A stretch of DNA of 56,121 nucleotides from Parcubacteria group bacterium. Its GTDB lineage: Bacteria; Patescibacteriota; Minisyncoccia; UBA6257; UBA11618. The notes beneath the pieces are model-generated. The model saw nothing but the letters and a program-made list of their open reading frames with translations, did no database searches and was not told where the DNA came from. Below are positions 2,136-53,592 of the stretch, in pieces. How positions within the stretch are numbered: the first letter of the stretch is position 1; every line of letters begins with the position of its first letter. Position numbers and translations under genes: made by a program. The stretch spans positions 3,688-59,808 of the forward strand of contig CALQZH010000003.1 in assembly GCA_943349395.1 (NCBI GenBank), written 5' to 3'.

Positions 2136-3101
2136 TCAAGGATTCCCTGCTGGTGCCGTTTTTTTCGCATTATGCCGCATGCCGAAAACGATCCGCTCTT
2201 CGGCTATATTCGTCACGTAGTGGAATGGCCTCTTTGATGACCCGAGGAAGCCCGGTGCGCGCAAGATCATGAGCGTTCCGGGAGCCGTGGGGAGCTTCTG
2301 CCGGCCCGTTCCTTCGCGATCGGCGCAGAGGAATACGTCTCCTCTCCCCTTCAGCGTGAGAACGAGAACGAGATCGACACTCGATCTGTTGTCCATGTGC
2401 GGGGTTATGCCGATCGATCCCGTGTCGTATTTCTGCAGGCTCATCTCGTTGAAACCGATCATCCTCGTGCCGAAGGGGTTCATGGCTGCTTGGGACAGCT
2501 TCCCGTTCATCATGTCCGCGATCTCTTCCGCGAGCGCGATGAACGGGCTCCCTTCTGGGAATTCGCCGCATGAAGAGAGCTCTTCGCGGACTTTATGCGG
2601 GCCGACGACGGTCGGCTGCTTCTCATATGCGCATTTTTCAGCTACATGCATGAGCGCGATACGCCGTTCTTCGGGCAGGATCGGAAATGCCGTGCCGCCA
2701 TAGAGCGTAAGCTCGCGCATGACGAGATCGATGTCGAAATCGAGCAGACTTTTCATGACCGGGGCGTGCCGCGTGATCGTGACGGATGGCGTGCCGTTTT
2801 CCCAGATCGCGGGTTTCTCCACCCTTACCCGCACTGCGCGGAGTCGGTCGTCTTCCAATATCCGCGCAGCGATCGTATCCGCGAGCGTCTCTATGAGCTC
2901 GCAGTGCGGGCCTTCGATCACGTCCTGCGCGATCTTTTTCGGGATGCGGTAGTCGACGGTTTCCGCGAGGTCTTCGCGGACGATATTCGCGCGATACGGC
3001 GTGAGGGCGAGGCTTACGCGGAAGGGCTGGGGCGCCAAGCGTTCCTTTTCCGTCGCGCCGTGCGTGCCGCGGAATGAGAGGTTCGAGATGCGTATTGTCA
3101 T
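2136..3101 (-). CDS. Fusion protein: FolB-like dihydroneopterin aldolase domain plus 2OG-Fe(II) oxygenase-like domain
   Basis: 321-aa ORF. The first ~115 aa (ISNLSFRGTHGATEKERL...VDY...LIETLADTIAARIL) match the FolB/tunnelling-fold pattern. The C-terminal ~200 aa carry an HxD (ITPHMDNRS) plus distal H (RPFHYV) and R (FGMRH) arrangement typical of Fe/2OG dioxygenases. Confidence 0.75.
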   Translation of the reverse strand: MTIRISNLSFRGTHGATEKERLAPQPFRVSLALTPYRANIVREDLAETVDYRIPKKIAQDVIEGPHCELIETLADTIAARILEDDRLRAVRVRVEKPAIWENGTPSVTITRHAPVMKSLLDFDIDLVMRELTLYGGTAFPILPEERRIALMHVAEKCAYEKQPTVVGPHKVREELSSCGEFPEGSPFIALAEEIADMMNGKLSQAAMNPFGTRMIGFNEMSLQKYDTGSIGITPHMDNRSSVDLVLVLTLKGRGDVFLCADREGTGRQKLPTAPGTLMILRAPGFLGSSKRPFHYVTNIAEERIVFGMRHNAKKTAPAGNP

Positions 3102-3125
3102 GGGGATTTTCGGTTATCGGATGGA

Positions 3126-3155
3126 TAAAAAAGCTTCCCCGGAGGGGGAAGCTTT
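3126..3155 (-). terminator. Intrinsic terminator inside the 5' leader of the FolB-fusion gene
   Basis: On the minus strand: AGCUUCCCC-CUCC-GGGGAAGCU followed by UUUUUUAU, 25 nt upstream of the ATG at 3101. Confidence 0.7.
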
Positions 3156-3279
3156 CAGCCGTCCGACGAGACGGGCCTATGGCATCAGATTCCCTCCGGG
3201 CGCGACAGGTCGGCCTCTCGGACGAATCCGGACCATGTCATGACTCGGCGGGTATGCATCATGGTTTCATGATACCATA
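3156..3279 (-). promoter_or_regulatory. Structured 5' leader (riboswitch/attenuator candidate) with a TATGGT -10 box
   Basis: Minus-strand TATGGT lies at 3279-3274. The leader holds a UUCG-capped hairpin (3230-3219). A CCGGAGGG segment (3199-3192) is complementary to CCCUCCGG within the terminator, so an antiterminator alternative is possible. Confidence 0.45.
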
Positions 3280-3366: not shown

Positions 3367-4467
3367 ATGACCAAGATGATGATGGCCTTATGGACGGTTG
3401 TCGTGCTCGCGATTGCCGGAGGGATAGCCTATGCCGTGTATTCCCTTCCCCCGGCGCCTATCGCTCCCGTTTCCGCTGCGAATGTTCCGGTCGCGGCCAT
3501 TCCCGTTCCCGCGGCTCCCGCATTACCCCAGCCCGGAGCGCCTTCCGTCGTGACGAGCGCGAGCGTCATTCCTTCCGATTCGGCCGCGGTCGTTACGGGT
3601 GCTATTGATCCGAACGGCGCCTTCACGACATATTGGTACGAATACGGAACATCGCCCGATGCCGCTCTTCCCCTTTCGAGCCCGCGGCAGATGATAGGGT
3701 CCGGGTACGCTTCGACTCCGGCATTCGGCTATATCACCGGCCTTTCGAGCGGCGCTTCGTATTATTTCCGCCTCGTCGGCGAAAACCAATATGGCAGGGT
3801 TTCGGGCCTGCGATATCCGTTCCAAACGACGCGTGGCAATCCTCCTCCTGCAGGAAGCGTTCCTACGCCGCGGAGTTCGGCCGCAACCGGCATAACGAGG
3901 ACCGCCGCGACTCTCAATGGAACGGTGAATCCCAACAGGGCGTCGACCCAGTATTGGTTCGAGTACGGAACGACGCCTAGCCTGGGCAATGCTTCGGCGC
4001 TCGAGCAGGTCGGAGACGGATCGGCTCCTCGCGCGGTATCCGTCTCCCTTTCCGATCTCAATCCTTCTTCCGCGTATTATTTCCGTCTCAATGCCCAAAA
4101 CCAATTCGGGACCGCGAATGGCGCGATTCTGAGTTTCAAGACCGCGGGCTCTTCGGCCGCTGCCGATCCTTATGTCGTGACCGGGGCGATCTCGAGCATC
4201 GGCGCTTCTTCGGCCACGTTGCATGGCTCGGTCAATCCAAACGGCATGGAAACGTCGTATTGGTTCGAATATGCGCCGAATCCTCCTTTCGGCGTATCCC
4301 TTTCCGTTTCGACAGCGCGGCAGTCCATCGGTGCGGGAACGGCTGCGTTTCCCGTCGCGGCCAGCGTTTCCGGACTGAAGCCGAAGACGGGCTATTATGT
4401 CCGTTTGGTCGCGCAGGGCAGTTCAGGCATCGTGTACGGGGATCGGAAATCATTCAAGACGGATTAG
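3367..4467 (+). CDS. Membrane-anchored/secreted protein with three tandem ~95-aa repeat domains
   Basis: 366-aa ORF with an N-terminal hydrophobic anchor. Three repeats each contain NPNG..T.YW(Y/F)EYG and YY(F/V)RL motifs (Fn3/Ig-like beta domains by pattern). Confidence 0.85.
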   Translation: MTKMMMALWTVVVLAIAGGIAYAVYSLPPAPIAPVSAANVPVAAIPVPAAPALPQPGAPSVVTSASVIPSDSAAVVTGAIDPNGAFTTYWYEYGTSPDAALPLSSPRQMIGSGYASTPAFGYITGLSSGASYYFRLVGENQYGRVSGLRYPFQTTRGNPPPAGSVPTPRSSAATGITRTAATLNGTVNPNRASTQYWFEYGTTPSLGNASALEQVGDGSAPRAVSVSLSDLNPSSAYYFRLNAQNQFGTANGAILSFKTAGSSAAADPYVVTGAISSIGASSATLHGSVNPNGMETSYWFEYAPNPPFGVSLSVSTARQSIGAGTAAFPVAASVSGLKPKTGYYVRLVAQGSSGIVYGDRKSFKTD

Positions 4468-9393: not shown

Positions 9394-9681
9394 ATGGCCC
9401 ATACAAAATCCCTCGGATCCACCAAGCTTGGCAGGGATTCCGAGTCCAAGCGCTTAGGAGTCAAACGGAACCAGAACCAGATGGTCGGTCCCGGCGAAAT
9501 CATAATCCGCCAGCGCGGCAGCCATTATCTTGCCGGCACGAACGTCATGCGCGGCTCCGACGATACCTTGTATGCCAAGGTTGCGGGAACGGTCAATTTC
9601 ACGACCAAGAAGAAGATACGCTTCGACGGCTCGCGCCGCATGGCAAAGGTGGTCAGCGTAGTCGCTCCCGTCGCCGCATAG
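9394..9681 (+). CDS. rpmA: 50S ribosomal protein L27
   Basis: [24 protein letters not shown]...IIIRQRG is the L27 signature. ATG at 9394. Confidence 0.9.
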
Positions 9682-9763
9682 AACCTATCTCATAATCCCC
9701 TCGAACCGCGTTGCGAGGCGGCTGTGCCGCTATCGCGGCCGAGGAGATTATGAGAAAGGTTCT
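9680..9763. other. 84-nt extended hairpin immediately 3' of rpmA
   Basis: Arms AGAACCTATCTCATAATCCCCTCG and CGAGGAGATTATGAGAAAGGTTCT pair with 2 mismatches. They enclose nested CCGCG/CGCGG and GCGGC/GCCGC helices. Confidence 0.6.
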
Positions 9764-9766
9764 ATT

Positions 9767-29192: not shown

Positions 29193-29768
29193 ATGTCGAC
29201 TCTCGGATACAATGATTTGCGGAAAGGGGTGGTATTCGACATCGACGGCGCGCCGTACGAGGTCGTCGAATACGCCTTCGTCCGCATGCAGCAGCGCAAA
29301 GCCGTGGCGCAGGTGAAGATGAAGAATCTCATGACCGGGAAGGTCGTGAGTCGCAACTTCCACCAGAATGAGAGCTTCGAGGCTGCTGACATGGAACGCG
29401 AGACCATCAAGTTCCTCTACCGCGCGAAGGGCGACTCGTGGTTCTCCGAGAAGAACGATCCGAGCAAGCGCTTCTCCGTCTCCGAGGAAGTGGTAGGTAC
29501 TGCGGGGAATTTCCTGAAGCAGAATACCGACGTCAGTGCTGTTTTCTTCAATGAGAAAATCATCAAGATCGAGGTGCCGATCAAGGTGGATCTCATGGTG
29601 AAGGACGCGCCTCCGGGCGAGCGCGGCAATACCGCCCAAGGCGGCATGAAGCTCGCGGAGCTCGAGACTGGCGCGAAGGTGAACGTCCCGCTTTTCGTGA
29701 ACACCGGCGACGTGGTGCGGATCAATACGGATACGGGAGAGTATACGGAGCGCGTAGAGAAGAATTAA
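29193..29768 (+). CDS. efp: Elongation factor P
   Basis: MSTLGYNDLRKGVVFDIDGAPYEVVE...VPLFVNTGDVVRINT. ATG at 29193 inside the TTG-started ORF. Confidence 0.9.
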   Translation: MSTLGYNDLRKGVVFDIDGAPYEVVEYAFVRMQQRKAVAQVKMKNLMTGKVVSRNFHQNESFEAADMERETIKFLYRAKGDSWFSEKNDPSKRFSVSEEVVGTAGNFLKQNTDVSAVFFNEKIIKIEVPIKVDLMVKDAPPGERGNTAQGGMKLAELETGAKVNVPLFVNTGDVVRINTDTGEYTERVEKN

Positions 29769-29775
29769 GCTTTCT

Positions 29776-29982
29776 AGGATTCCGTTCCACGATTCCCGAA
29801 TGCGCACGGCTCATATGCCCGCGAATCGCCGTTCGAATAAGCCGACAGGAAAAACGGAACTCAACCGCGGCTGCGCGCCGCGGGATTCAGACAGCCTTTT
29901 TTCCCCTCGGCTTATCTCTCATGGCTCGTCGCGGCATCCCATTCGCCTCAGCGATGTTCGGTAATCATCGAAACGGAATCCT
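29776..29982. ncRNA. Unclassified structured RNA-like element, copy A
   Basis: Shares identical blocks with 47790-47972 and folds into five nested helices (see findings). No conserved ORF. Confidence 0.6.
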
Positions 29983-30030
29983 TTGTATGGTTACCGATTT
30001 TTCTCGAGGGCGGTTTTAATAAGGGGGGAA

Positions 30031-30067
30031 AATGAAAACGCCGCCTTTGTCGGGCGGCGTTTTCATT
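30031..30067. terminator. Bidirectional terminator hairpin (15-bp stem)
   Basis: AATGAAAACGCCGCC-N7-GGCGGCGTTTTCATT. Confidence 0.7.
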
Positions 30068-31905
30068 TATTCCTTTATCGGGGGCGTTTCTTCCCTCGGC
30101 GGCATTAGCTCCTTGGAGGTCGGTTCGGAGGGAGGCGGCATCGTTTTCGGTTTTTCGGCGAGCGCTTTTCCGAGCGCTTCTTTCAGCCCGAGCACGTTGA
30201 TGGGCTTGCGTTCCCGAGGAGGCGCGGCCGGCGCAGGGGCCCGCTCGGGAGCTTGTCGCTCGGCTTGCGCAGGCGGCGGCGTCATGGGCGTCTGAGGCCT
30301 TTGCGGAGCGGGTTGCGCGGGTATGGGAGCTGGCGTTGCCTGCGGCGGCTTCGGGGCGGAGGGGGCGCTTGGCGCGTTCGCGGATTTCATGGGCACATAC
30401 GTCTTTGGTTGGGATGGCCGGGGGCTCGATGACGGGGCTTGTCCGGCGTTCATCGGCTTGCGTGCCGCTGGTTCGGGGTGGAAGATTGCCGGGGCCATTT
30501 CCGGGCGTTTTTCGCGCGGGATGAATGGCTTTTTCGTGACGATTGGGGCGTTCTCGGTCAAGGTTCCCGCGAGGGTCTTTTCGTCGCGTCGCTCGATCTT
30601 TTCCTTCATCGAGTTCGAGCCTTGGTTCAGCCATTCGCCCGCGATCGTATTCTCCACCTGCTCGCGCGGGATCGCGTGGCGCGTGCGTGCGTTCTGGATG
30701 ATTTCCTCCTTGTACGAGCGCGCGGGCTTCGGCGGGGGCGGGAGCGTATGCGCGGAGAATGGGCGTGACGAGATGCCGTCGATCATCAGCTTCATGTAGA
30801 TATTGTACTTGGCGAGGTTCACCATGTCGGTGCCGAGGAATTCGGGCATGAATTCCTTCTCGAGGAATTCGCCGTCTTCCGCGCCTACGCGGAAGACGAT
30901 CATGGTTCCCACGTTGCCGAAGATAGCGTCCTTCACCGTCGATTTGCCCTCGTCGTCCAGCTGGCGGAGATATTGGTTCGCGACCGTGAGCGATAGGCGG
31001 TATTTGCGGGCTTCGGACAAGATGCTCGCGAAGGACTCCGTGGCGAAGTTCTGAAACTCGTCGACGCACAGGTAGAAGTCGCGGCGCTTCGCCTCGGGGA
31101 TGTCCACGCGGCTCATGGCGGCCAATTGGAGCTTCGTGATGATCATAGCGCCCAGGAGGGCCGAGTTGTCCTCCCCTATCCTCCCTTTCGAGAGGTTGAT
31201 GATGAGGATTTTGCTCTCGTCCATGACTTTCCGTAGGTCGATCGAGGAATGGGCTTGGCCGAGGATATTCCGTACCAAGGGATTCGACACGAATTGGCCG
31301 ACCTTGTTCTGGATGGCGGCCGTCGCCTCCGTCTCGAATTTCTGGCTGTATTTCGAGAACTCGTTTACCCAGAAGCTCCGCACAACCGGGTCCTTGAGGT
31401 TCGATACGACCTGCTTCCGATATTCCGGGTCGTTCAACATGCGCATGATACCCAGGAGCGTCGTGCCCGGGTATTCGAGGAGCGCCAAGAGCGTGTTGTT
31501 CATGATATAGGCCATGCGGGCGCTCCAGGCATCCGCCCAGATTTTCTGCAATACGCCCATCATGCCGGAGGCGACGAGGTGCCGGAATTCCGGGTCTACC
31601 TGTTCCAGGGGATTGAACGCCACGGGGAATTTGGTATCCGACGGGTCGAGGTAGATCACGTCGTCCACCCGGTGCTCGGGCACGTAGTCGAGGATTTTCT
31701 CGGCGGATTCGCCGTGCGGGTCGATGAAGGCGACCCCTCGGCCCTGGTTGATATCCTCGATGATCATGTTCTCCAAGAGCGTGGATTTTCCCACGCCGGT
31801 CTTCCCGATGATGTATATGTGGCGGCGGCGGTCATCAACCTTGATGCCGAACCGGCGCTCCTCGTTCCTGAAGTTGGTCCTTCCGAGCCAGGTAATGCTA
31901 TCCAT
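30067..31905 (-). CDS. TraD/VirD4/TraG-like P-loop ATPase (type IV coupling-protein-like) with Pro-rich C-terminal tail
   Basis: Walker A IIGKTGVGKST, Walker B FYLCVDEFQNF. 612 aa. The last ~200 aa are low-complexity and P/A/Q-rich. Confidence 0.8.
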   Translation of the reverse strand: MDSITWLGRTNFRNEERRFGIKVDDRRRHIYIIGKTGVGKSTLLENMIIEDINQGRGVAFIDPHGESAEKILDYVPEHRVDDVIYLDPSDTKFPVAFNPLEQVDPEFRHLVASGMMGVLQKIWADAWSARMAYIMNNTLLALLEYPGTTLLGIMRMLNDPEYRKQVVSNLKDPVVRSFWVNEFSKYSQKFETEATAAIQNKVGQFVSNPLVRNILGQAHSSIDLRKVMDESKILIINLSKGRIGEDNSALLGAMIITKLQLAAMSRVDIPEAKRRDFYLCVDEFQNFATESFASILSEARKYRLSLTVANQYLRQLDDEGKSTVKDAIFGNVGTMIVFRVGAEDGEFLEKEFMPEFLGTDMVNLAKYNIYMKLMIDGISSRPFSAHTLPPPPKPARSYKEEIIQNARTRHAIPREQVENTIAGEWLNQGSNSMKEKIERRDEKTLAGTLTENAPIVTKKPFIPREKRPEMAPAIFHPEPAARKPMNAGQAPSSSPRPSQPKTYVPMKSANAPSAPSAPKPPQATPAPIPAQPAPQRPQTPMTPPPAQAERQAPERAPAPAAPPRERKPINVLGLKEALGKALAEKPKTMPPPSEPTSKELMPPREETPPIKE

Positions 31906-45845: not shown

Positions 45846-47201
45846 GTGCCAACGACGCTCAAAGTAACTCCCCAGAACATAGAGGCAGAGGAATCCGTCC
45901 TCGGCGCCATCATGATCGATCGCGACGCGATCGTTAAGGTGACGGACATCCTGACCGCCCGCGATTTCTACGTGCCCGCCCACGGCCTTATTTACGAAGC
46001 CATGGTCAAGCTCTTCGAGAAGCATGAGCCGATCGACATCGTGACGATGGCGAACCGCTTGAAAGAGGATGGCACGCTCGAGCGCGCCGGCGGCGCGACG
46101 TACCTCTCGACGCTCGTCGAGCGTGTGCCTTCGTCCTCGCATATCGTCCATTATGCGGAGCTCGTGAAGGAGAAGAACGTCCTCCGGAGCATCATCACGG
46201 CCGCGGCCGAGATGACCGAGGCGGCATTCAACCCCCAGGAGGAGGCGGACGACATATTGGATGCGGCCGAGCAGAGGATATTCTCCATATCCCAGGGGTC
46301 CGTGCGCCAGAAATTCGTCGCGGTGAAGGACGAGCTCCAGAACGCCTACGAGCGCATCGAGCGGCTCCACCGCGGCGAGGGAACATTGCGGGGCGTAGGT
46401 ACGGGCTTCCCCGACCTCGACAATTGCCTGTCGGGCCTCCAGAAGTCCGACCTCGTGATCATCGGCGCGCGGCCGTCGCTCGGAAAGACCACGTTCGCGC
46501 TCGACATCGCCCGGCACGCGGCGATACGCGAGGGCTTCCCCGTCGGCATATTCTCCCTCGAAATGTCTCGCGAGCAGGTCATCGACCGCCTGATCGCCGC
46601 GGAAAGCCAGGTTCCCTTGTGGAAGCTGCGCACGGGGCGCCTGCAGGACGATATGGACTTCCAGATGGTCCAGGCGGGCCTCGACGTGCTCTCGAAGGCG
46701 CCTATATATATCGATGACGCCGCGAGCCCCACCATACTCCAAATGAAGTCCATGGCGCGCAGGCTCCAGATGGAGCATGGCCTTGGCCTCATCGTCGTCG
46801 ACTATCTCCAGCTCATCCAGCCGCGCATCGGCGGCGACAATACCGTCGCGCAGATCACGGAGATCTCGCGCGGATTGAAGGCGCTTGCGCGCGAGTTGAA
46901 CGTCCCGGTCGTCGCCTTGTCCCAGCTCTCGCGCGAAGTCGACAAGCGCGAAGTGAAGGTGCCGCGCCTGTCCGACCTCCGCGATTCGGGCTCGATCGAG
47001 CAGGACGCGGACGTCGTCATGTTTATCTATCGCAAGGATCGCGACAAGCTGAATCCCGACCCCGAGGAGATGAATAGCGCGGAGATCATCGTCGCGAAGC
47101 ACCGCAACGGCCCCTTGACCGTCGCCAAGGTCAAGTTCGACTCCGAGAAGGTCAGCTTCAGGAGCATCGACGAGGTGCATACCAACAACAGCCCCTTCTA
47201 G
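45846..47201 (+). CDS. dnaB: Replicative DNA helicase DnaB
   Basis: PQNIEAEESVLGAIM N-terminal domain, Walker A GARPSLGKTT. 451 aa, GTG start. Confidence 0.95.
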   Translation: MPTTLKVTPQNIEAEESVLGAIMIDRDAIVKVTDILTARDFYVPAHGLIYEAMVKLFEKHEPIDIVTMANRLKEDGTLERAGGATYLSTLVERVPSSSHIVHYAELVKEKNVLRSIITAAAEMTEAAFNPQEEADDILDAAEQRIFSISQGSVRQKFVAVKDELQNAYERIERLHRGEGTLRGVGTGFPDLDNCLSGLQKSDLVIIGARPSLGKTTFALDIARHAAIREGFPVGIFSLEMSREQVIDRLIAAESQVPLWKLRTGRLQDDMDFQMVQAGLDVLSKAPIYIDDAASPTILQMKSMARRLQMEHGLGLIVVDYLQLIQPRIGGDNTVAQITEISRGLKALARELNVPVVALSQLSREVDKREVKVPRLSDLRDSGSIEQDADVVMFIYRKDRDKLNPDPEEMNSAEIIVAKHRNGPLTVAKVKFDSEKVSFRSIDEVHTNNSPF

Positions 47202-47773
47202 TGCTTCCCCGCCCCATCCAGAGGTTCATAGACGCGTTTTCCGCCTTGCCGGCGATCGGGCCGCGGCAGGCTATGCGTCTCGCGTTCCACCTGATCGGCC
47301 TCGGCGAGAATTCGATTGCCGAGATCGCCGCGGCTGCCGCCGGGCTTTCCGCGCTCCGCATATGTCCCGACTGCTTCTTCTTTTCCGACGGGGCATGTTC
47401 GCTCTGCACGGATGCGCGGCGCGCGCGGAAGATCCTTGCGGTCGTCGAGCGGCCTACGGACGTTCTCGCCATCGAGAAGACCAAGAAGTTCGACGGGACG
47501 TACCTCGTGCTCGGCGAGATGCGGAAGACCGGCGGTTTCGCTCCCGACCAGAAGCTGAAGCTCGCCCGGGCGCGGGAGCGCGGCCCGTTCGATGAGGTGA
47601 TCCTGGCGTTCGACCAGACGACGTATGCCGATTTCGGCGCGTCGGCCGTCATGAAGGAATTGGAAGGCGTTACGAAGAAAGTGACCCGGCTTGGGCGGGG
47701 CATTCCCACGGGCGGGGAGATAGAATTTGCAGACGAGGATACGCTCGGCGGCGCATTGCGGAACAGGAGCTAG
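47201..47773 (+). CDS. recR: Recombination protein RecR
   Basis: HhH (LPAIGPRQAMRLAFHL), C4 zinc finger (CPDC...CSLC) and Toprim domain. GTG start overlapping the dnaB stop. Confidence 0.9.
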   Translation: MLPRPIQRFIDAFSALPAIGPRQAMRLAFHLIGLGENSIAEIAAAAAGLSALRICPDCFFFSDGACSLCTDARRARKILAVVERPTDVLAIEKTKKFDGTYLVLGEMRKTGGFAPDQKLKLARARERGPFDEVILAFDQTTYADFGASAVMKELEGVTKKVTRLGRGIPTGGEIEFADEDTLGGALRNRS

Positions 47774-47789
47774 TGCGGCGGAAGGCCGC

Positions 47790-47972
47790 ATCGCCCCTCT
47801 CGAATGCGCACGGCTCATATGGCCACTCTCGCCATTCGTCCGGGATTTCTCGAAAAAGAGAACTCAACCGCAGCGTGGCTGCGGGATTCATACATCTCTT
47901 TTTCTTCGGTCCCGTTCCTCATGGCTCGGCGGACCATCTCATTCGCCGTAGCTATATTCTCGCGCGGGCGAT
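47790..47972. ncRNA. Unclassified structured RNA-like element, copy B
   Basis: Homologous to 29776-29982 with compensatory changes in helices P1, P3, P4 and P5 (see findings). Confidence 0.6.
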
Positions 47973-48043
47973 TACAACCTTCTTTTCCAGCCAGCTTCCT
48001 ATTTCTCTTGCACCGCCTCGCTCAGGGTTTCTCAATGAAAACG

Positions 48044-48067
48044 AAAAAGGGGCTGGTGCCCCTTTTC
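48044..48067. terminator. Bidirectional intrinsic terminator (recR side / rplU)
   Basis: AAAAGGGG-CTGGTG-CCCCTTTT. Confidence 0.75.
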
Positions 48068-51454: not shown

Positions 51455-52084
51455 ATGTCCACACCACGGAATCAAGATGAAAGGGAGTATGAAGCGTTCA
51501 TGGTCAAGATGCGCACCTTGCAGATTTTCAGCACGGGACAAGTTGCGCGAATCTGCCTCGTCGCTCCGCGAACCGTTTCGAAGAACTGGTTCGACAGCGG
51601 CCGGCTTCGCGGCTATCGGATTCCCGGGAGCAGGGACAGGCGGATTCCGCTCGAGCATCTGATAGCTTTCCTCAGGGAATACAAGATGCAGGACATTCTC
51701 GATCGATTGGTGACTATCGGTTCAGAATGTACGGGCGTTTATATCGGCGCTGGTGGGGAGGCGTGCGCGGCCGCGCTCGGGGCCGATTTCAAGCTCCATA
51801 TCGCGAGCAATCAGATCGAGCTCGGCTTCATGATCGGCAGGTATGCGCCCGGGTCGGTTCTCATCGACTTCGCGCGACCCGGTAAGGATAACCCCGCCGC
51901 GCTTTGTGCCGGCTTGCGCGCATTGCCTGGTATGGAGGCGGTCGCTTTCATCGGCATCCGCGATGCCGACATGTCCGATGCCGCCGCATCGTTCGATCCG
52001 TCTCTCGTCGACGCGTCCGTTTCCGACGTGCTCAATTTCCTCTTGAGCGAGATCGTTTCCCAGGTCGCGAAAAAGGCATTGTGA
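51455..52084 (+). CDS. Excisionase/MerR-type HTH plus receiver-like domain protein, paralog 1
   Basis: 209 aa. The HTH (FSTGQVARICLVAPRTVSKNWFDSGRLRGYRI...RRIPLEHLIAFL) is followed by a ~110-aa alternating beta/alpha segment with a VLIDF acidic site. Confidence 0.75.
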   Translation: MSTPRNQDEREYEAFMVKMRTLQIFSTGQVARICLVAPRTVSKNWFDSGRLRGYRIPGSRDRRIPLEHLIAFLREYKMQDILDRLVTIGSECTGVYIGAGGEACAAALGADFKLHIASNQIELGFMIGRYAPGSVLIDFARPGKDNPAALCAGLRALPGMEAVAFIGIRDADMSDAAASFDPSLVDASVSDVLNFLLSEIVSQVAKKAL

Positions 52085-52118
52085 GCGGGACGGATCATCA
52101 TGGATCAAAAGACATAGA

Positions 52119-52157
52119 GCGTCGTACCGGGCTTCCCGCCCGTACGCCGCTTTTTTT
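52119..52157 (+). terminator. Intrinsic terminator of paralog 1
   Basis: GCGTCGTAC-N14-GTACGCCGC followed by TTTTTTT. Confidence 0.7.
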
Positions 52158-52167
52158 ACGCCGTATC

Positions 52168-52196
52168 TTGCATAATTACTAGTATCGTGGCATACT
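52168..52196 (+). promoter_or_regulatory. Promoter of paralog 2
   Basis: TTGCAT-17 nt-CATACT, preceded by TG (extended -10). Confidence 0.5.
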
Positions 52197-52251
52197 ATCC
52201 GCGGTTTCTCCTGGCATTCCCCTCCCTCTCGAATCACAGGAAATTGACATT

Positions 52252-52830
52252 ATGAGCTCGTCTCGTCCGTCGCGAGCGTCTTGGCGTCCTGCCTGGCGCT
52301 CATTGCCTTCGCTTACCATCCCGATGATCGCGGAGCTGGCCCGCGTTCCCAGAGAGACCGTATCGGATTGGCTCGATGCGGGTTCCATGCCCAGTTTCGG
52401 ACAGGGCGACGAGCGGCGCGTCAAGCGCGCGCAGTTCGTCGAATTCGCCAAGAGCCATCGTATGCGGCATGCGGTCAATTTTCTCGAAGGCCGGCAACGC
52501 AAGCGCATCGCGTATTTCGGCTTGCGCGCTTGCCGTGTCGCTTCTGCCGTGAACGGCAGGGGCAGGCCGTTCGAGTTTCATACGTTCGTCACGCCGTTCG
52601 ATCTCGGTTTCGATTTCCTCCGGGTCTATCCGGATGCCGTCGTGATCGACGTGCGAGACGATATGGGATTCAAGCTAGCCCCTTTCGTTCTCGTCGTGGG
52701 GCGAGCGGTTCAGACGTTCGGCATCCCGCTCGTCGTCATCAAGAAAAGCACCGGCCAGCGAATGCCCGCTATCGTGCATAAGGCGGTGTGCCGGGCGAGT
52801 GCCGTGCGGGGAAAGATCGATGGCATCTAA
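52252..52830 (+). CDS. Excisionase/MerR-type HTH plus receiver-like domain protein, paralog 2
   Basis: 192 aa. It aligns with paralogs 1 and 3 (IAELARVPRETVSDWLDAG..., RIAYFG, PDAVVIDV, IPLVVIKK). Confidence 0.75.
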   Translation: MSSSRPSRASWRPAWRSLPSLTIPMIAELARVPRETVSDWLDAGSMPSFGQGDERRVKRAQFVEFAKSHRMRHAVNFLEGRQRKRIAYFGLRACRVASAVNGRGRPFEFHTFVTPFDLGFDFLRVYPDAVVIDVRDDMGFKLAPFVLVVGRAVQTFGIPLVVIKKSTGQRMPAIVHKAVCRASAVRGKIDGI

Positions 52831-52864
52831 CCAGCCAATCGTTCGTTTCGAAACGGATTTCAAG

Positions 52865-52900
52865 CGTCGTATCAGGCTTCGGCCGCGTACGGCGTTTTTT
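52865..52900 (+). terminator. Intrinsic terminator of paralog 2
   Basis: CGTCGTA-N15-TACGGCG followed by TTTTTT. Homologous to the paralog 1 terminator. Confidence 0.65.
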
Positions 52901-52912
52901 CTTTAGCATGCC

Positions 52913-52941
52913 TTGCATTATTCAAATTATCGTGGCATGCT
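52913..52941 (+). promoter_or_regulatory. Promoter of paralog 3
   Basis: TTGCAT-17 nt-CATGCT. The same TATCGTGGCAT spacer end as the paralog 2 promoter. Confidence 0.5.
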
Positions 52942-52989
52942 ATGCGCAGCGTTTCCTATCCCGTTTCTCTTTTGACTAGGATATTTGAC

Positions 52990-53592
52990 ATGGATTCCCC
53001 TGTTTTTCCGCCGGGCCCGTGGCCTGCGGAGTGGCGCGATTTGGAAGAATTGCGTATGGGTATGATCGCTCAATTGGCCGGCGTTTCCGAAGATGTCGCA
53101 GTGTCGTGGGTTACCGAAGGCTGCCTTCTCGGCCGAGGAAGGCTTGGAGGCCGCAATTGGCGTGCTGATCGCGATGATTTCCTTCTTTTCGCAAAGCATC
53201 GGGGCATGTGGCCTGCCGTCCATTTTTTCGAAGGCCGGGTTGCCAGGCGTATCGCGTATTTCGGCGATGATCCTGACTCCGTGACTCAGGCCTTGAGCGC
53301 GAGTTCGGAGCCTCTCACCGTCGAGCAATTCACCGATACGTTCGCGTTCGGGCATGCGTTCATGGGTTCGTATCCGGACTGCATCGTCCTCGACATGCGG
53401 TGGCACGATATGGTCCAGATCATCTTCATCCTCGTTCAAAGCATGCTTCCGACGCTCGAACGGACGAGGATTCCTTTTATCGTGCTGAAGCATCGGCCCA
53501 ATGAGGCGGTTCCTCCGGGTACCCGCCATTCCGTCCATAGCCTGGAAGCCTTGCTTCCGACGGCTCGCGAGGCTCTCGGGCTCGCTGGATGA
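52990..53592 (+). CDS. Excisionase/MerR-type HTH plus receiver-like domain protein, paralog 3
   Basis: Start set at MDSPVFPP (ATG after the conserved TTGACAT) rather than the ORF-track ATG at 52942, which abuts the -10 box. RIAYFGDD, PDCIVLDM, IPFIVLKH. Confidence 0.7.
   Translation: MDSPVFPPGPWPAEWRDLEELRMGMIAQLAGVSEDVAVSWVTEGCLLGRGRLGGRNWRADRDDFLLFAKHRGMWPAVHFFEGRVARRIAYFGDDPDSVTQALSASSEPLTVEQFTDTFAFGHAFMGSYPDCIVLDMRWHDMVQIIFILVQSMLPTLERTRIPFIVLKHRPNEAVPPGTRHSVHSLEALLPTAREALGLAG

Follow-up and report, generated by a model that had tools for sequence, protein, structure and literature searches.

A candidate family of palindromic intergenic repeats downstream of efp and recR in a Patescibacteria clade

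Introduction

What defines a MITE is a set of inverted repeats at its ends, matching those of a parent IS, together with target-site duplications; among them, the Correia/CREE and RUP elements are co-transcribed with neighbouring genes. The ERIC/IRU elements of enterobacteria are ~127 bp long and best conserved in their central part, and they lie in transcribed intergenic regions near gene 3' ends, where they are thought to affect mRNA stability as an RNA hairpin; they are associated with a TA target duplication. REPINs, which are REP doublets mobilised by RAYT, are non-coding, extragenic units of ~70–110 nt in which two highly conserved inverted terminal REP 16- to 25-mers surround a variable spacer, and the whole unit forms a long hairpin in ssDNA or mRNA. 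They occur in tens to hundreds of copies per genome, and the cognate RAYT (a Y1 transposase) is usually REPIN-flanked. Compensatory changes across the REPIN hairpin are common (PMC3116915), and REPINs are inherited vertically and duplicate very slowly; the 'master sequence' is conserved and older copies have diverged (bioRxiv 10.1101/2021.07.10.451892).

Here we analyse a ~200-nt non-coding, extragenic element that is present as two copies (A and B) in a 56,121-nt stretch of a Parcubacteria group bacterium genome (hereafter the window), and that resembles each of these systems in part. Homologues of EF-P and RecR assign the window to Patescibacteria, and it belongs to a 234-kb metagenome contig (ENA ERZ27280317, k141_291755). 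Like a REPIN, the whole unit is capable of forming one long hairpin in ssDNA or mRNA, and this hairpin is kept with compensatory changes (92.9% of cells, 14/40 pairs). Unlike a REPIN, it has outer segments (18–25 nt per side) that differ in 4/4 sequences, and its conserved blocks lie in the interior and do not form reverse complements of one another; it is also longer than a REPIN, is represented by only 2 copies in 71 kb, and no RAYT was seen within those 71 kb. The element shares with ERIC/IRU an imperfect palindrome (100–200 bp) that is best conserved at its centre, a location near gene 3' ends, and presence or absence at orthologous sites, but it belongs to another phylum, is ~200 nt long, shows no recognisable TA duplication, has a far lower copy number in the DNA sampled, and has no similar sequence among 5,426 E. 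coli genomes. As with the Correia/CREE and RUP MITEs, it is small, non-coding, insertion-polymorphic among close relatives and hairpin-capable, but its termini differ between copies, and neither terminal repeats nor a target duplication was found. Because it has neither the terminal REPs of a REPIN nor the ends of a MITE, we regard it as an element that works like both and is a member of neither. Its size range, covariation-supported helices and conserved loops also recall structured RNAs held in Rfam (6S, raiA, HEARO, OLE, riboswitches), but it reaches the gathering score of no family and forms a single unbranched rod.

Position and Extent of the Two Copies

Copy A is a full hairpin rod of 207 nt (29776..29982; CM R1 172.8 bits), described here in the orientation collinear with efp (+). 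It follows efp (29193..29768, + strand; stop TAA 29766–29768), which encodes elongation factor P of 191 aa; a database entry with the identical 191-aa sequence carries EFP Pfam domains. In the predicted fold, the 5' arm of the closing stem (AGGATTCCGTT..., 29776..29793) pairs with its 3' arm (29960..29982). Alignments and covariation counts delimit a conserved core of 167 nt (29794..29960) comprising block 1 (29797–29817), helices, and the invariant loops CGGCTCATAT and ATTCGCC; within it, the apical hairpin CCGCGGC-UGCGC-GCCGCGG (29865..29883) has the conserved flanks GAACTCAA and GATTCAGACA. A tail (29983..30029) connects the rod to an intrinsic terminator that is bidirectional (30030..30068), with a perfect 16-bp stem that includes AATGAAAACG, and that overlaps the stop codon of a TraD/TrwB-like (DUF87) gene (30067..31905, − strand), assigned from the Pfam families of its orthologues in relatives.

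Copy B, a full hairpin rod of 202 nt (47781..47982, + strand; CM R1 176.7 bits), follows recR (47201..47773, + strand; 190 aa, stop TAG 47771–47773). The sequence-only reading had confined this copy to 47790–47972; folds, the CM score and orthology to the copies of relatives (L055/L056 and L063, below) support the wider extent. Its conserved core, taken from the alignment and the CM, spans 47798..47960. The tail (47983..48044), defined by alignment of the window with its sister species, is noticeably better conserved between the two than the rod is, as judged by eye and not by counting. It is followed by a bidirectional intrinsic terminator that is common to recR and rplU (48045..48066), and by rplU itself (ribosomal protein L21; 48068..48379, − strand). 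The tails of copies A and B show a weak likeness (TTACCGATTTTTCTCG versus TTCCTATTTCTCTTG) and may be homologous.

The two sites thus have the convergent setting that had been noted from the sequence, with efp facing the TraD-like gene and recR facing rplU. Both rods begin at the 8th base past the stop codon (i.e., after 7 intervening nt) and lie upstream of a bidirectional terminator, and for every copy, including those of relatives, the start of the rod is 6–14 nt 3' of a stop codon.

All of the shared blocks listed by the sequence-only reading were located where it had placed them. In the 56-kb window, the 21-mer CGAATGCGCACGGCTCATATG is found only at 29797 and 47801, and allowing 3 mismatches adds no further match (chance expectation 0.00); the blocks GAACTCAACCGC, GCGGGATTCA, CTCATGGCTCG and CATTCGCC are common to both copies, and AATGAAAACG accompanies both, at 30031–30040 and 48034–48043. 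Aligned with their flanks, copies A and B are 76% identical, and their cores are 71–74% identical. No copies beyond those described here were found in the window, in the 6.7 and 7.9 kb of flanking contig added to it (14.6 kb) or in the loci of relatives; ~71 kb of the window genome therefore contains 2 copies, and one full copy was seen in ~30 kb from the sister species. Logan contigs L053 and L054, assembled independently from the same population, both end at 47904, inside copy B and immediately 3' of the TCTCTTTTTC arm; the element may be heterogeneous or undergo excision at this point.

Two other repetitive features were observed in the window. The convergent rplI/rpmA spacer contains an 88-nt hairpin (9678–9765) with 26-nt arms that are 92% complementary and a 36-nt loop; it too is unusually long and lies between convergent genes, but it has no sequence relationship to the element. 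A 95-nt direct repeat, 72% identical between its two occurrences (52118–52212 and 52863–52957), corresponds to the terminator-plus-promoter spacers between three tandem paralogues (51500–52084, 52252–52830 and 52990–53592), of which the first two have an HTH_17 match and the third is without a Pfam match.

Conserved Hairpin Structure

On the + strand, copy A folds at −93.4 kcal/mol (z −6.0 against shuffles) and copy B at −83.3 kcal/mol (z −4.5); the corresponding − strand values are −107 kcal/mol (z −7.5) and −95.4 kcal/mol (z −6.3), and the minus-strand fold is the more stable in 4/4 sequences. The architecture is that of one ~200-nt rod with no branch points, composed almost purely of Watson-Crick pairs (~95% on both strands). 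Since this rod folds equally well on either strand, both its nature as RNA and its assignment to the + strand are putative; a comparison of G-U with A-C cells gave no strand signal (6 versus 3 on the + strand).

The structure and covariation counts rest on four distinct sequences, namely copies A and B, and the copies of L055 and L063. In the core alignment of these four, 92.9% of cells pair, and 14 of the 40 pairs have changes on both sides; the result from three sequences was already similar, and the L063 sequence, which was not used in deriving the structure, fits it. None of 500 shuffles reached the observed pairing or double changes, and sliding the partners by 1–3 columns left 1–4 such pairs. 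Copies of A that were randomly mutated by 25–32% fold at −0.28 ± 0.04 kcal/mol per nt, versus −0.38 to −0.47 for the real homologues. The hairpin shape is maintained by compensatory change, and the helices proposed from the sequence do covary once the sequences of relatives are added. Folding reproduced four of them (P1, P5, P3 and P4). The exception is P2, proposed as CGAATG/CATTCG: it is complementary in the window copies, yet this register is supported neither by homologues nor by covariation, and the pairing of that region which both of these back is CCGAATGCGC..GGC with GCC..GCG.TGTTCGG.

Each of the four copies has a closing stem of its own sequence, and pairing is kept in all: copy A has 11 perfect bp (AGGATTCCGTT/AACGGAATCCT), and the counterparts are GAAGG..ATCGCCC / GGGCGAT..CCTTC in copy B, GGCAACCGTG / CACGGTTGCC in L055, and CCGACGGCATATCTTTTC / GAAAAGATATGTTGTCGG in L063. 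An origin of these stems in insertion into a pre-existing terminator hairpin, or in an inverted target duplication, was considered and dropped. The closing stems of copy A and L055 share a GG-NNN-CCGT/ACGG-NNN-CC frame with covarying middles, which argues that the stem belongs to the element; the sharing of a 9-mer with the efp flank of the sister falls short of significance (E 8.9). The apical hairpin (helix 5) is 100% paired, with a G-C to A-U double change in copy B.

The conserved internal loops measure 4x7, 7x6 and 6x6, with no large central bubble. Three unpaired motifs are invariant, CGGCUCAUAU, AUUCGCC and GCGGGAYUCAUACA (in DNA, CGGCTCATAT, ATTCGCC and GCGGGAYTCA); they are situated in the asymmetric internal loops and beside the apical hairpin, and they are not mutual reverse complements. 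Unpaired and paired columns are equally conserved, with 36/78 and 35/73 invariant, respectively.

Database Searches and Absent Features

When the whole window was searched with Rfam 15 at the gathering threshold, only tRNAs passed. Permissive Rfam scans of both copies gave a single hit on the rod, to Guanidine-III, which at 13.8 bits (E = 1.7) lies well below the gathering score of 36 and is not credible; other weak hits fall on the terminator region, and scans of the homologue loci L063 and L056 gave nothing at E up to 1. The earlier view that the sequence matches no named RNA family is thereby borne out, at gathering and permissive thresholds alike. BLAST against plasmids, phages and complete E. 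coli genomes (5,426) found no match. Pattern scans gave 5 hits in GTDB genomes and 31 in JGI metagenomes, all attributable to chance with no similarity outside the anchors, and nothing in viral contigs; the patterns used for genomes and metagenomes contain blocks peculiar to the window copies and would miss L055B and L063B, and these negatives are therefore weak evidence on the distribution of the family.

The element has no evident coding capacity. As the sequence-only reading had claimed, the copies share no open reading frame: they differ by indels of 1–2 nt, and tblastx between them gives only short hits (8–36 aa) whose frame and strand are inconsistent. Both copies, translated in six frames and queried against 5.8 billion proteins, gave no hits. 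Neither of the features that the sequence-only reading had named as evidence against a new RNA, a conserved micro-ORF or terminal repeats with target-site duplications, was found between or around the copies. The termini are copy-specific and the ends are the least conserved part, with weak symmetry of the CCGAA type only at the core borders, and thus no conserved terminal inverted repeats were identified. No target-site duplication could be defined; the empty site in L064 and the filled sites are too diverged for junctions to be placed, and TTTCT/TTTGT beside copy A is unconvincing. An integron attC site (5'-RYYYAAC ... GTTRRRY-3') was rejected: copy A has 5'-..CCGTT ... AACGG..-3', which is of opposite polarity, and the other copies are without these boxes. 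A consensus scan found no sigma-70-like promoter on either strand, and Pfam lists for the window and its extensions (71 kb) contain no transposase or RAYT.

Distribution and Divergence of the Copies

The copy between recR and rplU is old and vertically inherited. An orthologous copy occupies this site in the sister species (GCA_023244835.1; RecR 94% identical; L055/L056), at 3588–3777 of L055 (145.5 bits), and in a relative with 79% RecR identity (L063), at 2992–3194 (119.4 bits); both scores are from CM R1, which was built without L063. The recR copy keeps its structure across these three species-level lineages. Window and sister species are ~80–90% identical in coding DNA and only 61–74% identical in the element. 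In a relative with 74% RecR identity (L064), the recR–rplU site is empty, with a 26-nt spacer that consists of the bidirectional terminator only. A 413-nt spacer after recR in L057 (77% RecR; 3577–3990) was rejected as a homologue: it is not homologous, is not significantly structured, and lies in a different gene order. This spacer contains several hairpins and short tandem repeats (e.g., ggttcggttacgtaagg twice), and a gene of >1300 aa replaces rplU there.

Copy A has a much narrower distribution. Same-strain contigs (L006 = L007) carry an identical copy A, while the sister species, with EF-P that is 97% identical, has an unrelated 196-nt spacer at the efp site and no copy A, and ~80% relatives with the same gene order have only 6–26 nt between efp and the TraD-like gene. 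Because copy A is seen only in the window's strain and is missing from the corresponding sites of relatives, it represents a recent gain private to this lineage. Orthologous sites are therefore found in both states: efp filled only in the window's strain, and recR filled in three lineages and empty in L064. At the site of copy A, the sister spacer (L008 10573–10752) holds a minus-strand ORF for a hydrophobic 59-aa protein (MPMKEIERLMM...WIIVKEQGGFRA) that sits after the TraD-like gene and overlaps the efp stop codon; this ORF has no counterpart at the efp site of the window or of the 80% relatives, which suggests that the spacer is a turnover hotspot. The neighbouring TraD/TrwB-like protein has a variable proline-rich C-terminal extension, and measures 612 aa in the window, 571 in the sister and 521–529 in the 80% relatives. 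A role for copy A as a stimulator of stop-codon read-through at efp was discarded, there being an in-frame TAG two codons past the efp stop.

A third site is suggested by the sister's mnmA–efp spacer, upstream of efp, which contains TCGAATGCGCACGGCTtATTaCcCCGTAGtATtATAT (L008 9921–9960; L009 5265–5319; L010 106–160). This sequence is block 1 (16/16 exact) fused to a 3'-arm block, with TCGAATGCGCACGGCTtAT joined to CCGTAG..TATAT; a rough estimate of the chance expectation is ~0.01 for a 15-mer. It is probably an internally deleted third copy; slippage between the CTCAT repeats that the two arms carry may have produced the deletion.

Across 151 ungapped core columns, copy A has 2 private substitutions, compared with 17 in copy B, 15–16 in L055 and 10 in L063; the newest copy is thus the most ancestral-looking. 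Copy A differs by 26–29% from copy B of the window and by 23–27% from the L063 copy, and is accordingly no closer to the former. Given that copy A is consensus-like and no nearer to copy B, a local duplication of copy B is not the expected source, and the pattern is the one expected if new copies stem from a conserved 'master' sequence, as in REPINs. Over evolutionary time, copies of the element have thus arisen, been retained and degenerated at different intergenic sites. The sequence-only reading had set mobility aside, but the copies behave like a dispersed repeat, as seen in the strain-private copy A and its consensus-like sequence, the empty recR site, and the probable deleted copy at a third site.

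Interpretation and Alternative Explanations

We consider the element to be best explained as a small, lineage-restricted family of non-coding palindromic intergenic repeats of the REP/BIME-ERIC-Correia-REPIN kind in a clade of Patescibacteria (CPR), and put the probability of this reading at roughly 0.45; the family is new, and the general kind (REP/ERIC/REPIN/Correia) is already known. The repeat unit would be the ~200-nt imperfect hairpin, possibly with the ~50–60-nt tail included. New copies would arise from a consensus-like source copy via a single-stranded hairpin intermediate, using an enzyme encoded elsewhere (in trans), and those landing between a stop codon and an existing terminator would be the ones to survive. 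Surviving copies would be transcribed within the 3' UTR of the upstream gene, where the rod may fold to a long RNA hairpin and so provide a 3'-terminal barrier or a site of processing, with neither convergent gene harmed. Against this reading are the low copy number, the lack of classic transposon ends, and the fact that no transposase or RAYT was seen; its long persistence at recR across three lineages also counts against it, and the invariant non-complementary loops, together with conservation of unpaired positions equal to that of paired ones, would be more usual in a protein-binding RNA than in a selfish palindrome.

Such a protein-binding role is at the center of the main rival account, possible but unlikely in our estimation, in which the element is a dedicated lineage-specific structured RNA, either acting in cis within 3' UTRs or released as a small RNA by processing of the efp and recR transcripts, with invariant loops that bind protein and an efp copy that reflects a rare gene duplication. 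The strong covariation accords with this, as do closing stems that are free in sequence and always paired, the invariant asymmetric unpaired motifs, the same orientation at both independent sites between stop codon and terminator, and a recR–rplU copy that persisted through three lineages while the adjoining spacer turned over. The loops and the persistence at recR are indeed better explained in this way; the account fares worse with the efp gain, with a copy A so close to the consensus, and with the probable deleted copy at a third site. A dedicated RNA would also have to be reconciled with the lack of a detectable promoter, with two strands that give the same rod (~95% Watson-Crick, no G-U bias), with its absence from close relatives that have the same gene order, and with a copy A that is new yet consensus-like and no closer to copy B than to L063. 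The two readings are not mutually exclusive, and the structured-RNA interpretation of the sequence-only reading is weakened, not refuted; it is partly supported, in that the element is non-coding and has nested helices, against which stand the single unbranched rod that folds on either strand and the behavior of a dispersed repeat. More doubtful again is a broader claim that spans both: that the element exemplifies an undescribed, structure-defined class of hairpins in Patescibacteria, known by its invariant asymmetric loops and not by its ends, that is either copied to stop-codon-proximal sites by a mechanism unlike that of transposons or acts as a clade-specific protein-binding 3'-UTR RNA.

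The compensatory changes could themselves be a product of DNA replication if the element were a functionless quasi-palindrome with arms re-matched by template-switching ('quasipalindrome correction'), which would mimic compensatory evolution. Nearly pure Watson-Crick pairing on both strands, symmetric folding, double changes that often come in runs (e.g., ATT/AAT versus CAA/TTG in the closing stems), and the resemblance of the putative deleted copy to slippage between two CTCAT direct repeats are all in keeping with this; templated correction should, however, erase mismatched loops, and the loops persist as the most conserved positions. It also leaves unexplained both the arrival of a copy at a new locus and the small amount of change in the copy A lineage, and we judge it improbable. 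An antisense or independent small RNA transcribed from the minus strand, running from the tail region toward efp or recR, would fit the greater stability of the minus-strand fold in 4/4 sequences and a tail that is seemingly better conserved than the rod (window versus sister) and could therefore hold a promoter. The consensus scan found none, the G-U counts do not favor the minus strand, and the element lies directly past a strong terminator, with the result that such a transcript would run into the upstream gene without a terminator of its own; this is very improbable. Least probable of the explanations weighed is a divergent 6S-type RNA with two paralogues, its rod mimicking an open promoter and sequestering RNA polymerase. 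We take the element to resemble 6S RNA in being a ~200-nt irregular rod with conserved internal loops, present in one or two copies per genome region, and like a processed transcript without its own promoter; the Rfam 6S models nevertheless give no hit even at E up to 10, the loops (4x7, 7x6, 6x6) include no large central bubble, and the locus is empty in relatives, with the efp copy recently gained.

Implications for Patescibacteria

Mobile and repetitive DNA, like non-coding RNA, has hardly been explored in the very small genomes of the Candidate Phyla Radiation. The family has been seen in only three closely related lineages, which limits its practical value. If the element is a dedicated RNA, it would give a phylum in which few RNAs are known one more family, backed by covariation. 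If it is instead a family of palindromic intergenic repeats, as we favor, it would provide a compact case for how hairpin repeats persist in streamlined genomes, long kept at one site and occasionally seeding others, and also for the question of whether the host makes use of such repeats, for example in shaping mRNA 3' ends.
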